Shown here piece by piece: positions 1 to 64,000 of a stretch of DNA of 64,000 bases. This DNA is from a phage. Below the pieces are notes generated by a model. It was not told where the DNA came from. It saw only the letters and a program-made list of their open reading frames with translations, and searched no databases. The position numbers and the translations under genes are program-made. Location of the stretch: NCBI GenBank assembly GCA_024674815.1, contig GCA_024674815.1_4104.1, one strand, 5' to 3'. Each line of letters starts with the position of its first letter. The stretch's first letter is position 1.

Positions 1-2
1 AT

Positions 3-287
3 GCTGTTAACTTACCAGTATACGTTAAATTTAGAATTAATGGTGAAGTTTATAGTAGTGGATATAACTTAAGTAGTAGTTTGGGGGTAAATTCCGTTTC
101 CACCAGCGTAAAAAATACAACTTTAGTTCCAGGTGCATCAAAAATGACATCGTGGGTGGCTGGTGATACTAATGTTAAATTAGCTACTATTGATGGTAGT
201 TTATATGGTGCAGGTAACGTACAATATATTTTAGATAAACCAAGTCAAGAAATATATCCCACATATCAAAAATTAAATATAATATAA
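3..287 (+). CDS. RCC1-like repeat protein, 3' fragment (5' end outside window)
   Basis: Frame open from window edge; LYGAGN repeat motif; stop at 285-287. Confidence 0.5.
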   Translation, partial: AVNLPVYVKFRINGEVYSSGYNLSSSLGVNSVSTSVKNTTLVPGASKMTSWVAGDTNVKLATIDGSLYGAGNVQYILDKPSQEIYPTYQKLNII

Positions 288-297
288 AGGAGGGAAT

Positions 298-1467
298 ATG
301 TTACCTTTTGGAAGAATGTTAAAGTACGGAAATATTAAACCAACTCTTCCTGAAATAAAGAAATTGGATGGTAGTCAATTACATGTCGGATTACTTTATA
401 GTACAGGGAATATGTACATGCGTGGTTCTGGTTCGAACTATAAATTAGGTACAGGGGATGCTAGTGATGTATTAGGTGGTTGGGTACATGTACCCTATGA
501 AGTTGATGATTTTTGGGCGTGTGTATCCGGTACATTAATAAAGACTGTTGATAATAAGTTATATTGTGCCGGACTATACATGGGTGGATATTTTGGGGCT
601 AGTGGTTCATATGTTAACTGGACTGAAGTAACTTCATTATTTGTAGGTATTGACGTGTCGCAAATAAAGAATATAGAATTTACGTCAGCAGGTACGTCAG
701 GTAGTACACTAATATTGATGTTAGATGGTCGTTTATATGGGTTCGGTATGAACAGTAGATCTGAGTTAGGTGTTAATAACAAAGTTGTATCTCCCATTCT
801 TATAGATACTGGGGTAAGTGAAATAGGAGCACATAAGTTAGGCGGTTCATCGTTCCATTATATAAAAGGCGGTAAGTACTACAGATGTGGAACATCGGTT
901 GGTAGTAATATTGGAAGTTCTTCTTTAACTACTTTTACTGTATTGAATATTTCTGATAACGTTATATCTATGCAAATTTTATATGACAACGTACAGTTAT
1001 TATGTTTAGGAAGTTCTGGATATAGTATCTATATGGCTGGTTCTAATGATTATGGTGGAAGAGGTGTTGGTGGTTCTACTGTTTACACTACATTCAGGAA
1101 AATAGATCTTACAGGATTTGGTGTTGTTCCCAGTGAAATACTATTTGAAAATGCCGGAAATGGTTATGTTAATATATCAACTGATAGTACTGGAGTATAT
1201 ACATGTGGTGGTGGAGCGGGTGTTAACGGTTTAGGTAGACCAACTAATGTAATACCAAGTTCACAGTTGGGGGTAGTTCAGTTCAGTACTGGAGTAGAAC
1301 AATCAAATATAAGTCGTGTGTATTCACAGAGTTCGAGTTCTGTTATATATTGTATAGTCAATAATGAATTGTACTGGGCTGGTAGTAATTCATATTTTAC
1401 TGATCAAACCACAAATACTGGTACACAATTTTCATTTATTAAAATGAAGGATATGCCTTCTGCTTAG
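298..1467 (+). CDS. RCC1-like beta-propeller repeat protein
   Basis: Strong SD (aaggaggg) upstream; repeated LY-x-AG-x-N...G-x-LG-x-G motifs. Confidence 0.75.
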   Translation: MLPFGRMLKYGNIKPTLPEIKKLDGSQLHVGLLYSTGNMYMRGSGSNYKLGTGDASDVLGGWVHVPYEVDDFWACVSGTLIKTVDNKLYCAGLYMGGYFGASGSYVNWTEVTSLFVGIDVSQIKNIEFTSAGTSGSTLILMLDGRLYGFGMNSRSELGVNNKVVSPILIDTGVSEIGAHKLGGSSFHYIKGGKYYRCGTSVGSNIGSSSLTTFTVLNISDNVISMQILYDNVQLLCLGSSGYSIYMAGSNDYGGRGVGGSTVYTTFRKIDLTGFGVVPSEILFENAGNGYVNISTDSTGVYTCGGGAGVNGLGRPTNVIPSSQLGVVQFSTGVEQSNISRVYSQSSSSVIYCIVNNELYWAGSNSYFTDQTTNTGTQFSFIKMKDMPSA

Positions 1468-1474
1468 ATTTTAT

Positions 1475-1493
1475 GCCAGTGCCTTGTACTGGC
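1475..1493 (+). terminator. Rho-independent terminator hairpin
   Basis: gccagtgccttgtactggc stem-loop followed by T-run. Confidence 0.6.
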
Positions 1494-1539
1494 ATTTTTT
1501 TGTCCTAAATATAATAACGATTTACATTTGGAGGATACA

Positions 1540-1764
1540 ATGCTACCCTTTGGAAGAATTATCACATCATCAAAAAAGAACATACAACCTTCTGTTACAA
1601 AAATAGCTTCATCTGATACAACAGTTTTTGCCCTTATGTCAGATGGTACGTTGTACAGTAGAGGCTCTCAAGAGTTTGGGCAAATGGGTATAGGTAATAT
1701 TATAACACAAACCAAATGGGTTTTGTGCAATACAAACGTAGAAGATCTATGGGTTCGGGTATGA
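1540..1764 (+). CDS. RCC1-like paralog, N-terminal segment (gene apparently interrupted)
   Basis: SD ggagga before ATG; N-terminus MLPFGRI matches 298..1467 (MLPFGRM); stop at 1762-1764. Confidence 0.5.
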   Translation: MLPFGRIITSSKKNIQPSVTKIASSDTTVFALMSDGTLYSRGSQEFGQMGIGNIITQTKWVLCNTNVEDLWVRV

Positions 1765-1795
1765 GTCAACATTAATTAAAAAGAAAGATAATACG

Positions 1796-61534: not shown

Positions 61535-62018
61535 TATAGTTTTCCTTTAACACCGTTCTTATATATTCGAATGTTTTAACAAACCAATCATGTTCGTCGG
61601 ATACATCTACAACTTTACCACCATATACATAGTAATGGTAAAAAGGTAACTTGCTTTTTCTTAATCTTTCGGCTAACTCTGGATTTTGAATTATCTTAGC
61701 ACAAATAGCATCTTGAATAATAGAAATACAATCATCCGTCATTTCAATTCGATCATGCATATATTTGTTAGCGGCTGCTTTTGCTGCTGCACCAGATACT
61801 TTTCTAAGGTCATCATGTTTTTGCCCAGTTAAAAACCAAAAGTAAAATGTTTCAACTGAAGGGAACCAACCATATGGTTCAAGTGTGAAGCTATGTGAAG
61901 AAAAGTTAGATAGATCTCTACCTAACTTAGTTCTAGCTTTACTATAAATGTTAATGTGTCGGTATCCATCATCAGTAGGGTCAATAAAGTCAAATGACTC
62001 TTCTGGGAACTCAAACAT
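61527..62018 (-). CDS. NADAR (YbiA/DUF1768)-like protein
   Basis: INIYSK...DLSNFS...GWFPSVETFYFW...AAAKAAANKY...AICAKIIQNPELAERL resembles recalled YbiA hallmarks. Confidence 0.6.
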   Translation of the reverse strand: MFEFPEESFDFIDPTDDGYRHINIYSKARTKLGRDLSNFSSHSFTLEPYGWFPSVETFYFWFLTGQKHDDLRKVSGAAAKAAANKYMHDRIEMTDDCISIIQDAICAKIIQNPELAERLRKSKLPFYHYYVYGGKVVDVSDEHDWFVKTFEYIRTVLKENYNG

Positions 62019-62020
62019 AA

Positions 62021-62374
62021 TTATTCTTCTTCTCCTGAAGGAGTTCCACGTAGTTTGTCAAAATCAACCCAAATACCATGCTGATTTTTAAATCTACATT
62101 TCTCATAGTACCAGCTATAGTCAGTTTCAACACCTTGTGATATAGATCTAACACTACAATCATACATATTATATAAATGATCCCTGACAATATACGTATT
62201 AATCAGAATAACAAACAATACAATAATACCACAGACTTTAGGATGATCCATAATCAAATCTAGAACGGAACTCGTTTCAGTACTGTCAATTTTACTACGA
62301 CCGATGGCAACAGCTTTCAGTACTGCTAATGATACCAGTAATGAAATAACAAGAACACTCAAATAAATTAGCAT
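62021..62374 (-). CDS. membrane protein
   Basis: Two TM helices. Confidence 0.55.
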   Translation of the reverse strand: MLIYLSVLVISLLVSLAVLKAVAIGRSKIDSTETSSVLDLIMDHPKVCGIIVLFVILINTYIVRDHLYNMYDCSVRSISQGVETDYSWYYEKCRFKNQHGIWVDFDKLRGTPSGEEE

Positions 62375-62376
62375 AA

Positions 62377-62958
62377 TTAGACTCCTACACCAAAACGTAA
62401 AAGGATGTTATTAACAAACACAAAATCAAATGGAGACTTTGGTTCAGATACCGAGTACTGAAAAGTTTCAGCGGAGAAACTTTCCCTATTGTGCCATGTT
62501 GATGAATCGATTAGTAATTGTTTATCACCAATTGACGTTGAATGTAATGGAACGTGTGCTGATGAATTTATGGAATACGCATTTAGTTTTCCTTGTTCAT
62601 CTAATGTGATACTAAGATAATATTTTTTCTCAATATCAGGAATAAGTTCTTTTGTATACGAATAGATTGAATCAACCCATTCATCATGTACATTTTCTGC
62701 ACCAATCAGGTGTCCGAATGATAAATTACGTTTAACTGGCTTTGATCCTGGTCGAGTTAGAATGAATTGTTTTGTTAAGTAAAAATTATTATGTTTTACT
62801 TCAATATTAACATTTTTAAAATTCACCACTTTATCATATACATTTCGAAAAACTGTTATATCCCAAGTACTAATTTCATCCATAATACTTATCACCAGTT
62901 CTTCTAGTTCTTGTATAAATGGCAAATCATCTTGATGAAATCTAGTCATGGTTTTCAT
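62377..62958 (-). CDS. hypothetical protein
   Basis: 193-aa ORF. Confidence 0.65.
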   Translation of the reverse strand: MKTMTRFHQDDLPFIQELEELVISIMDEISTWDITVFRNVYDKVVNFKNVNIEVKHNNFYLTKQFILTRPGSKPVKRNLSFGHLIGAENVHDEWVDSIYSYTKELIPDIEKKYYLSITLDEQGKLNAYSINSSAHVPLHSTSIGDKQLLIDSSTWHNRESFSAETFQYSVSEPKSPFDFVFVNNILLRFGVGV

Positions 62959-63541
62959 ATACCTTTTTCAAATTCATAATTTCAAGAATGCTGTATTCTT
63001 TATCACCAATCAAATCTTCAGTGAATGCAGTGGGGTCGGCATCGCTATACAACTTACCATTGATGATAACACAACCATTACTAAGATACAATGCACTCAT
63101 GATCTGTTGTCCTTCTTTCACATTTTGTGCTAGACCTGTATTTGTTACTACAAATCCATTTGTTGCTAATGATGATGTTAGTTCTGACCATTCAACTGAT
63201 ATTAAGTCGCGATAGTCCTTAGATACTTTTATATTCACAATACAAGCAACTCGTTTAATAGGTGGAGTGCTAATCGTGTACATTTGTGGTTGTTGGTAAT
63301 TAGAGTTGTATGTTTGTGGTGTTTTAACAGCAGTTCCTGAATTTTGAGTTGATTTGGTAATTACTGGTTCTACACTGGGGACTGTTGTTCTTAGTGATAT
63401 AATACGTCCAGTTTCATCCAATTTAAGGACTAAACGATGAGTTTCATCCTCAGAGTAATAGGGAAACAAGCCACCGGAATTCATATTTTGAAGCATTTTA
63501 ATTAATTCATAAGTATTTTTTAAAAACATAGTACACCCCAT
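62942..63541 (-). CDS. hypothetical protein
   Basis: 199-aa ORF. Confidence 0.65.
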   Translation of the reverse strand: MGCTMFLKNTYELIKMLQNMNSGGLFPYYSEDETHRLVLKLDETGRIISLRTTVPSVEPVITKSTQNSGTAVKTPQTYNSNYQQPQMYTISTPPIKRVACIVNIKVSKDYRDLISVEWSELTSSLATNGFVVTNTGLAQNVKEGQQIMSALYLSNGCVIINGKLYSDADPTAFTEDLIGDKEYSILEIMNLKKVYENHD

Positions 63542-63576
63542 AGAAAAGGGGAGTACAAAGTACTCCCAACATTTAA

Positions 63577-63918
63577 TTATAGTTTAATTGATTCTTGAAT
63601 ACCAGTATCCATTGCTTTCTTGGTACGTGTATCAGATACTACTGTACAAAGGTGTTCAATATTTTCACTTGGAAACGTATTCGAATCAAGAATTTTGGAA
63701 TTCCAGAAGCCTTTGCGGAACTTAGCATAATCAGTACACTGGTCAATTTTCATTTTCTGAAGATTGTTGAACTTTGTACGTCCTGCTTCAATTGTCACCA
63801 TCAATTCCTGATAAATTTTAGGATCAAGATTTGGAACCTGTTGTTGAATCTGTGACATTACAAACTTCTGGTCAACACCTTCACGCCCTTTAAAGTATGA
63901 CTCAATCGTTTCTTTCAA
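63577..63918 (-). CDS. hypothetical protein
   Basis: 113-aa ORF. Confidence 0.55.
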   Translation of the reverse strand: MKETIESYFKGREGVDQKFVMSQIQQQVPNLDPKIYQELMVTIEAGRTKFNNLQKMKIDQCTDYAKFRKGFWNSKILDSNTFPSENIEHLCTVVSDTRTKKAMDTGIQESIKL

Positions 63919-64000
63919 CGCATTTTTGTACTTATCTGCTACTTGAACCTTATCTTGAATAGTAAGAGTATAATTGCTAAGTTGACTTTCAGATGCATCA

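Follow-up and report, generated by a model that had tools for sequence, protein, structure and literature searches.

AGTACT, an iterated palindrome of RaK2/121Q-like jumbo phages that may be read by a lineage-specific DNA-binding protein

The 64,000-nt stretch of phage DNA analysed here (contig GCA_024674815.1_4104.1 of GenBank assembly GCA_024674815.1; hereafter, the window) carries the palindrome AGTACT 176 times, or one copy per 364 bp, against an expectation of about 18. Its relatives include Escherichia phage vB_EcoM_E9.1, at 99.1% identity, and 121Q (Asteriusvirus), at 97%; both are 350-kb jumbo myoviruses of the RaK2/GAP32/CBB group, and the window corresponds to the early, host-takeover region, in which hundreds of small genes have no assigned function. 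AGTACT is an iterated palindrome in a virus, the sign of its deviation is opposite to that of restriction avoidance, and no matching methyltransferase is evident; it is a new form of the phenomenon known as the highly iterated palindrome (HIP). The reading that we favour, tentatively and at somewhat less than an even chance, is that (C)AGTACT(G) is bound by a symmetric reader particular to the lineage and for that reason kept under weak selection, with a sub-population of sites placed to control early sigma70 promoters. Full-text searches of the literature on phages and jumbo phages, and the genome papers of RaK2 and CBB, yielded no earlier description of an enrichment of AGTACT or of its extended form, CAGTACTG.

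The initial annotation of this DNA had put AGTACT at roughly one copy per 300–400 bp in sampled stretches and considered it strongly over-represented. Exact counting agrees, down to its local figures of five copies in 17.0–19.0 kb and seven in 19.0–21.6 kb. Shuffles of the window that preserve dinucleotide composition yield 17.9 ± 3.9 copies (maximum 29), and Markov models of orders 0 to 4 predict 21.7, 18.2, 34.9, 66.4, and 134 copies, respectively; at each order, AGTACT ranks first as the most deviant hexamer in the window. The copies are dispersed over positions 1–64000, with 146 in genes (in all three frames) and 30 in non-coding DNA, and 40 of them take the form CAGTACTG. Density is 2.7/kb in coding and 3.2/kb in non-coding sequence. 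The same holds for the 121Q genome, which was assembled in full (348 kb): AGTACT is found 903 times where about 100 copies are expected, and CAGTACTG 194 times where 4.4 are expected. Density in 121Q is 1.1–2/kb in the replication and structural modules and rises to 6.5/kb at 130–150 kb; early-region values of 2.7–6.5/kb compare with 1.5–1.7/kb in structural genes. As in a HIP, therefore, a short palindrome is many-fold over-represented genome-wide and present in coding and non-coding DNA independently of reading frame. AGTACT was also considered as part of a longer repeat or of paralogous genes; this was rejected since the median best flank identity (0.50) equals that of random positions, and flank information is close to zero beyond the adjoining base.

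Codon and dipeptide usage do not account for the excess. Genes were called by a simple longest-open-reading-frame (ORF) proxy, which gives 141 genes that together take up 85% of the window; 130 lie on the minus strand. Permuting synonymous codons within each gene, with the protein and per-gene codon usage kept, leaves 41.9 ± 5.9 copies in coding sequence (maximum 58) against the 146 observed, whereas permuting codon order leaves 21.3 ± 4.5. The initial annotation had held that its claim would fall if correction for codon and dipeptide usage brought the ratio near 1; after that correction, the ratio is still 3.5. Copies in coding sequence are spread 67/37/42 over the three frames. In 121Q, Ser-Thr is written AGT-ACT in 352 of 675 instances (101.5 expected from codon usage), and AGTACT also exceeds expectation in the [K/Q/E]-Tyr-T.. 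frame (131 versus 21.3 expected) and in the x-Val-Leu frame (226 versus 50.2). The dipeptides that host the word are themselves in excess in the 121Q proteome (533 called ORFs), by 1.43-fold for ST, 1.38-fold for VL, and 1.50-fold for QY, but the same residues in reversed order are not (0.97- to 1.06-fold). An excess that is independent of frame, combined with this codon and dipeptide skew, means that the pressure acts on DNA and leaves its mark on the proteome. The shuffles and the per-frame opportunity counts thus rule out a codon or dipeptide artefact and support AGTACT as a functional DNA-level feature, as the initial annotation had suggested.

The flanks of the word are informative only at the immediately adjoining positions. 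In the window, C stands at −1 in 89 of 176 copies and G at +1 in 74; C is favoured and G avoided at −1, the mirror image applies at +1, and there is almost no information beyond. CAGTACTG, an 8-bp palindrome, is the preferred form, with an observed/expected ratio of 44 in 121Q. The other flank classes in that genome grade downwards from 15.6 (C+T), 12.6 (C+A), and 9.9 (C+G), through 5.9 (TAGTACTA), 5.4 (AAGTACTT), and 5.0 (A+T), to 3.5 (G+A), 2.7 (G+T), and 1.1 (GAGTACTC). All ten ratios are approximated by the product of independent half-site factors of about 6.6 for C, 2.3 for A or T, and 1 for G. The inner positions were assessed in 121Q against a background in which GTAC was masked: the full word is enriched 12-fold, words with one AGT half 2.1- to 2.7-fold, and GTAC words without an AGT half 1.2- to 2.0-fold, with zero copies of CGTACG and GGTACC. 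One-mismatch neighbours of AGTACT are mildly enriched and none is depleted (observed/expected 0.9–1.7). All enriched lineages have identical, mirror-symmetric preferences at the flanks. If selection acted on how fully a homodimeric DNA-binding protein occupies its sites, such a graded, symmetric, and nearly additive pattern would be expected; restriction or modification enzymes, whose recognition is all or none, seem to fit it less well. Chi-like words are asymmetric and biased in orientation; both AGTACT and its flank preferences, by contrast, are palindromic.

Relatives at graded distances were picked by their major capsid protein, and their AGTACT counts rest on samples of 27–91 kb each. 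Enrichment of 5- to 10-fold is shared by 121Q, ph0011 (99 observed, 12 expected), Salmonella phage Munch (61 and 12), Cronobacter phage GAP32 (82 and 12), the Klebsiella phages RaK2 and Muenster together (181 and 18), and Xanthomonas phage XaC1 (121 and 16). The Muenster early region, in which 35 ORFs of the window are conserved, holds 101 copies in 40.9 kb. Vibrio phage 2.275.O (17 and 28) and Stenotrophomonas phage CM1 (8 and 7) are not enriched, and the word is purged from Pseudomonas phage PA5oct (0 and 14) and from the phi92-like coliphages (0 and 23), an unrelated group in which palindromes are also purged. Outside the enriched lineages, therefore, AGTACT is a restriction target counter-selected in large phages, coliphages included. 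The hosts of the enriched lineages are nearly all Enterobacterales; a host-driven trait is nevertheless rejected, as XaC1 (reported on Xanthomonas) is enriched while coliphage relatives of phi92 are purged. The trait follows the phage lineage and not the host.

The genomes that accumulate AGTACT avoid many other palindromes, a contrast to which the initial annotation had pointed in general terms. In the window, 26 palindromic hexamers are at zero (summed expectation 88), as are 24 in the whole of 121Q, all with at least four G/C positions; GAATTC, AAGCTT, and GATATC, each with two, are not avoided. GTAC also escapes avoidance, unlike most 4-bp palindromes. A restriction-avoided palindrome falls far below its expected count, whereas AGTACT lies 9- to 12-fold above it in the enriched lineage. 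The tetranucleotide GCGC is absent from the window (27 expected) and from 121Q (178 expected in 348 kb), and equally absent from all other sampled enriched lineages, where 18, 36, 37, 32, and 33 copies are expected. Non-enriched phages carry it normally (observed/expected 146/145 in the Vibrio phage, 28/42 in PA5oct, 33/56 in CM1, and 95/80 in phi92-like phages). The ban is odd in that CpG methylation, discussed below, should already block HhaI-type enzymes at GCGC. Derivation of AGTACT from AGCGCT by double CpG deamination was rejected, since only 16 AGCGCT would be expected against 903 sites. The closest non-enriched relative, Vibrio phage 2.275.O, encodes a 7-deazaguanine/queuosine-type pathway (a QueF-like enzyme, GTP cyclohydrolase I, and others) and has no palindromic hexamer at zero in 91 kb; its anti-restriction strategy therefore differs from that of the enriched lineages.

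Single AGTACT sites come and go while their density persists. In codon alignments of eight orthologous genes from five enriched lineages, 76 of the 98 site columns are private to one lineage, and three are common to all five. Non-shared sites lie mostly where the protein differs too (338 of 400), and retention is 0.24 compared with 0.16 for control hexamers, a modest excess. Over the 59 kb in which the window aligns to 121Q (97.1% identity), 154 sites are shared and 11 are found on each side only, giving a retention of 0.933 versus 0.872 for controls (p=0.008). Against ph0011 (27 kb, 87.2% identity), 57 sites are shared, 27 are found in the window only, and 8 in ph0011 only, with a retention of 0.679 versus 0.481 (p=2e-4). 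Parsimony with ph0011 as outgroup assigns five gains and one loss to the two short branches leading to the window and 121Q. Losses occur at about 0.41 times and one-step gains at about 2.05 times the neutral rate, rough figures that assume half of the differences to be gains and derive from small counts. A weak pressure that favours the complete word, and that continues to act, thus maintains the density.

The nature of the changes bears on how that pressure might arise. Differences that alter a site, transversions among them, affect each of the three half-site positions, and AGAACT is the commonest alternative allele. A repair drive of the Vsr type, which would act on a single mismatch class and deplete a neighbouring word, is therefore excluded: changes occur at every position, there is no depleted neighbour, and Pfam recognises no Vsr domain in the window. 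The very-short-patch systems known so far each handle a single type of mismatch in a single sequence context.

A minority of sites occupies a fixed position within promoters. Strong sigma70-type promoters, defined as those matching at least 11 of 12 consensus positions, number 105 in 121Q. In 23 of these (0.55 expected), the first base of AGTACT precedes the −10 hexamer by exactly 7 or 8 nt, in the forms TTGACA-N9/10-(t/c)AGTACTG-TATAAT or AGTACTGgCATAAT; the TG at the same time serves as an extended −10-like element. Seven further promoters have the site joined directly to the −35 element (TTGACAGTACT). Altogether, 35 of the 105 contain AGTACT, but about 870 of the 903 sites lie outside such promoters and more than 90% are intragenic. 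A dedicated sigma70 element would hold a fixed position and be limited to promoters, whereas here the register is seen in only 23 (plus 7) of 105. Neither the late (TATAAATA) nor the TGAAACG-type promoters of 121Q have AGTACT in a fixed register, and a late or middle promoter element is rejected on that ground. The initial annotation had observed AGTACT immediately upstream of the −10 box in consensus promoters, which is borne out both in the window and in 121Q, and had listed a phage promoter or UP-like element among its options. The promoter link is genuine but minor, involving fewer than 10% of sites, and the word is not UP-like.

Several proteins were considered as possible partners of the word. 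The ORF at 54692–55552 (minus strand, 286 amino acids) encodes a predicted C5-cytosine DNA methyltransferase with a DNMT3-like core (PF00145, E 4e-38; TIGR00675, E 1.6e-34), whose closest solved relatives are DNMT3 catalytic domains in PDB (E ~1e-23). Its identity is at least 92% within Asteriusvirus, 76% to CBB, 64% to Muenster, and 51% to homologues in phi92-like phages. Genome-wide, CpG is under-represented (rho* 0.74) and TpG/CpA over-represented (1.23), and between close relatives C-to-T differences are 1.5–1.9 times higher in CpG contexts; the ACT context of AGTACT is average in this respect. For RaK2, moreover, bisulfite sequencing is reported to show CpG methylation, and the DNA to behave like DNA carrying both Dam and CpG methylation (PMC3622015). 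The enzyme is most likely a CpG methylase, and these observations, together with its homologue in AGTACT-free phi92-like phages, led to its rejection as the AGTACT methylase. A second, lineage-conserved methyltransferase is the product of 121Q gene 417, which belongs to the Dam family PF05869; characterised members of this family are GATC-specific. The lineage thus has two conserved orphan methyltransferases, one CpG-like and one of the Dam family, and neither has an apparent target within AGTACT. The proposal in the initial annotation that AGTACT is the target of a DNA modification consequently finds no support in either enzyme.

Among the remaining proteins, the one at 33366–33950 (minus strand, 194 amino acids, corresponding to 121Q gene 156) is a lineage-specific protein of the PD-(D/E)xK, or restriction-endonuclease, fold. 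It has the acidic-acidic-lysine motif on an alpha/beta core that typifies the fold: E64, D98, E107, and K109 are invariant across 41 homologues, and an AlphaFold2 model is confident (predicted local distance difference test 88.5, predicted template modelling score 0.85), although a Foldseek search with the model alone gave no significant match. Searching with tblastn returned 72 phage records, of which 71 belong to the enriched RaK2/121Q-like group and none is PA5oct-like. This putative nuclease is the best candidate reader found, albeit a weak one proposed from clade co-occurrence only; alternatively, it could be the agent of the GCGC ban, or be connected with neither word. Pfam searches of 131 window ORFs recognised only RCC1, EndoV, sigma factor, AAA ATPase, and methyltransferase domains, and PADLOC and PHROGs assigned no function to the conserved small proteins. 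A faint MutS_IV match could not be located among ten larger proteins scanned singly and is probably spurious. The sigma70-family phage sigma factor at 28305–29270 (minus strand; regions 2, 3, and 4) has no link to AGTACT that we could find.

Under the favoured reading, pervasive weak positive selection acting on double-stranded DNA would maintain about one AGTACT per 370 bp. The word would be bound by a homodimeric reader particular to the RaK2/121Q lineage, with CAGTACTG as the optimal site, and each half-site, (C>A≈T>>G)AGT, would add independently to how favoured a site is. Sites would be gained wherever protein constraint permits and lost more slowly than neutral sequence. In roughly one in four strong early sigma70 promoters, AGTACT lies in the spacer against the −10 box, and the same reader could there gate early transcription; binding might otherwise serve self-marking or protection, compaction, or a transcriptional switch. 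We infer that a protein dimer reads AGTACT and that this dimer is phage-encoded. A motif for a phage DNA-binding protein is also, among the options listed in the initial annotation, the one that fits best with the symmetric half-site effects, the lineage specificity, and the weak per-site selection.

A number of observations weigh against this reading. A regularly spaced, ordered nucleoprotein array is not indicated: the coefficient of variation of AGTACT spacing is 0.86 in the window (p=0.02) and 1.18 in 121Q, values that show no robust regularity. Selection and whole-motif biased gene conversion are not separable by the divergence data alone. Pfam detects no helix-turn-helix, ribbon-helix-helix, or TetR-like protein in the window, and no reader was found. 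As to the candidate nuclease, its phyletic pattern is the same as that of any clade-specific core gene, the 72nd tblastn record is a catalytically intact homologue (33% identical) in a non-enriched Vibrio phage, and the protein fits the banned word GCGC at least as well as the enriched AGTACT, a nuclease being more readily associated with a word that is missing from its own genome. The host contrast, finally, derives from a single 50-kb stretch of E. coli K-12, in which there are 3 AGTACT (0.06/kb) and 342 GCGC, making AGTACT about 45 times denser in the phage than in this sample.

Other explanations were considered. A possible but unlikely variant is a two-word code for self and non-self, in which GCGC is a nuclease target and CAGTACTG a positive self-mark read by a second dimeric factor. 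If so, GCGC, which recurs roughly once per 150 bp in the E. coli sample and is missing from the phage, would be targeted by a nuclease that destroys host DNA, for which the PD-(D/E)xK protein is a candidate, and the CAGTACTG mark, dense in the phage and met about every 17 kb in the host sample, would let the factor protect or organise phage DNA and time early promoters. This would amount to a sequence-encoded counterpart of the hydroxymethylcytosine system by which T4 tells self from non-self, in a lineage without hypermodified bases. We think it distinctly unlikely that AGTACT, or its GTAC core, is an epigenetic target methylated by a phage enzyme for strand discrimination, replication-coupled promoter switching (between fully methylated and hemimethylated early promoters), or protection against ScaI/Eco255I-type enzymes. 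In cyanobacteria, HIPs are indeed accompanied by orphan methyltransferases whose specificity matches (Elhai 2015, PMC4390886), and two orphan methyltransferases are conserved here; 900 unprotected copies of a restriction target that is purged to zero elsewhere look risky, GTAC escapes avoidance, and AGTACT sits in promoter spacers much as GATC does in Dam-regulated promoters. The enzymes themselves, however, point elsewhere: the DNMT3-like protein goes with CpG depletion and hypermutability while the C of AGTACT has no excess of transitions, RaK2 DNA reportedly shows Dam- and CpG-like behaviour, the second enzyme is of the Dam family, and phi92-like phages combine a 51%-identical C5-methyltransferase with zero AGTACT. 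Graded enrichment of partial sites would also be unusual for an enzyme target.

A molecular drive without phage function, in which heteroduplex repair or conversion during T4-like recombination resolves mismatches towards the whole word so that it builds up as a selfish sequence would, seems improbable to us. It would account for gains above and losses below the neutral expectation, for density being conserved where positions are not, and for a density peak where protein constraint is lowest, in the early region; these phages have full T4-type recombination machinery, and a mismatch-repair drive has been proposed for HIP1 (PMC4390886). Against it stand the changes at every position, the absence of a depleted neighbour class or of a Vsr-like gene detectable by Pfam in the window, and the fixed early-promoter register and smooth half-site energetics, which a repair bias would not be expected to produce. 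We regard as doubtful the idea that AGTACT marks cleavage or nicking sites of the nuclease at 33366–33950 and seeds recombination-dependent replication, clamp loading for late transcription, or genome processing. Restriction-endonuclease-fold enzymes typically read palindromes of 4–8 bp as dimers, this one has an intact catalytic motif and occurs in the same 71 records as the trait, and replication and recombination in these phages are T4-like; but cut sites would be expected to be lost by conversion from uncut alleles rather than gained, the Vibrio homologue is accompanied by no AGTACT enrichment, and the enzyme would explain the GCGC ban equally well or better. Binding by a host protein, such as hijack or titration of the nucleoid-occlusion factor SlmA, is very improbable. 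The SlmA site GTGAGTACTCAC is centred on AGTACT and requires G, T, and a purine at half-site positions 1–3 (GTRAGYRCTYAC) (PMC3020112), and the hosts concerned are mostly enterobacterial; in 121Q, however, there are no full SlmA sites in 348 kb, SlmA-type half flanks are under-represented (20 versus 50.6 expected), and GAGTACTC is the only flank class without enrichment; SlmA sites were rejected on these flank requirements. Enrichment in XaC1 and its absence from coliphage phi92 relatives speak likewise against a host factor. That the word is simply early promoter or terminator grammar, or a by-product of codons and dipeptides, is scarcely credible: some early promoters do hold it in fixed register, it occurs in terminator stems, and AGT-ACT encodes Ser-Thr, but the great majority of sites are intragenic and away from promoter-like sequence, and the codon-aware null is exceeded 3.5-fold, in all three frames.

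Within the window, the promoter-associated sites are exemplified by elements on the minus strand. A perfect sigma70-type early promoter, TTGACA-16-TATAAT, lies at 11228–11255, with AGTACT at 11235–11240 in the spacer and abutting the −10 box. Early promoters of the form TTGACA-N9-AGTACTG-TATAAT are found at 21581–21608 (site 21588–21593) and 25895–25922 (site 25902–25907), an architecture that recurs genome-wide in 121Q. A cluster of three promoter copies (cTTGACTaaatagttcAGTACTG(t/a)TATAAT) extends over 43506–44013 with sites at 43514, 43534, 43584, and 43993, and a promoter-like element at 5846–5874 has two sites, one fused to the −35 element (TTGACAGTACT, 5864) and one overlapping the −10 box (AGTACTAT, 5848). 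The two hairpins reported in the initial annotation are real. The terminator-like hairpin at 3347–3372 carries AGTACT in both stem arms (3352 and 3362), and 3340–3380 folds at −15.1 kcal/mol (z −6.8); that at 48017–48037 (minus strand) has CCCAGTACT in its stem (site 48026), and 48008–48046 folds at −14.2 kcal/mol (z −4.5).

Outside the window, 121Q at approximately 130–155 kb contains dozens of genes of about 60 codons, each preceded by its own near-consensus sigma70 promoter in which AGTACTG directly joins the −10 box, and it is here that density reaches 6.5/kb. A 2-kb gene-free gap at 135.2–137.2 kb lies in the region of this tiny-gene array. Chi (GCTGGTGG) occurs 29 times in 121Q (18 plus, 11 minus), where first-order and third-order models predict about 2.5 and 9 copies, respectively, and nine co-oriented copies cluster at 136–154 kb, within the array. 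At about 42.5–44.8 kb of the window, several AGTACT adjoin tRNA-like sequence, for example GGTTCGAATCC upstream of 42625 and a tRNA-like stretch after 44712; this region matches the annotated tRNA cluster of 121Q at 72.6–78.0 kb. A tandem family of RCC1-like beta-propeller genes has three members at 298–2692 of the window (plus strand) and about 14 paralogues in 121Q (genes 234–248), and is on the strand opposite to the surrounding early genes.

The jumbo phages that carry the AGTACT signal are of therapeutic relevance, dozens of them have been sequenced and can be cultivated, and the host is tractable; the reader of the signal is thus directly discoverable. That the signal strictly co-occurs with the complete absence of GCGC suggests a way in which large phages lacking modified bases might distinguish their own DNA from that of the host. 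In practical terms, around 900 ScaI sites with zero HhaI sites provide a simple diagnostic for the phage group, and AGTACT is a design constraint for engineering.

Among known systems, a functional model for the proposed reader is offered by phi29 p6 and SPO1 TF1, phage proteins that coat the whole genome and repress early promoters; these, however, recognise DNA shape or modified bases rather than a discrete palindrome, and no homologue was found here. The E. coli SlmA site has the same central hexamer and is read by a symmetric dimer, a TetR-family helix-turn-helix protein (PMC3020112), but there are about 50 host sites with G-T-R flanks as opposed to about 900 phage AGTACT that avoid those flanks. 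Dam methylation of GATC (with SeqA, MutH, and methylation-sensitive promoters) likewise involves a palindrome that is dense genome-wide and lies inside some promoters, an arrangement that would account for a role at both levels, although GATC is a 4-mer that needs no enrichment, and no MutH- or SeqA-like partner was identified in the present case. Restriction avoidance is at work in the very genome that purges at least 24 palindromic hexamers and GCGC, and yet for AGTACT, the target of ScaI and Eco255I, its sign is reversed.

The signals Chi (RecBCD), FtsK-orienting polar sequences (KOPS), and the uptake sequences USS/DUS resemble AGTACT in their genome-wide excess through weak selection or drive, in the dispensability of single sites, and in turnover at constant density. 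They are asymmetric and biased in orientation, whereas AGTACT is a perfect palindrome with symmetric flanks, and the enrichment of Chi in 121Q is only modest. Over-represented words such as Chi, KOPS, uptake sequences, and HIP1 each led to a dedicated DNA-reading machine, HIP1 being still open after 30 years. The closest phenomenon is indeed HIP1 (GCGATCGC) and the alternate HIPs of cyanobacteria (Elhai 2015, PMC4390886), which like AGTACT are lineage-specific, reach roughly one copy in every few hundred bp, and occur in all frames, within genes and outside them. AGTACT differs from HIP1 in being AT-rich and viral, in having no evident matching methyltransferase, in the mild enrichment of its one-mismatch variants, and in being purged from other phages.

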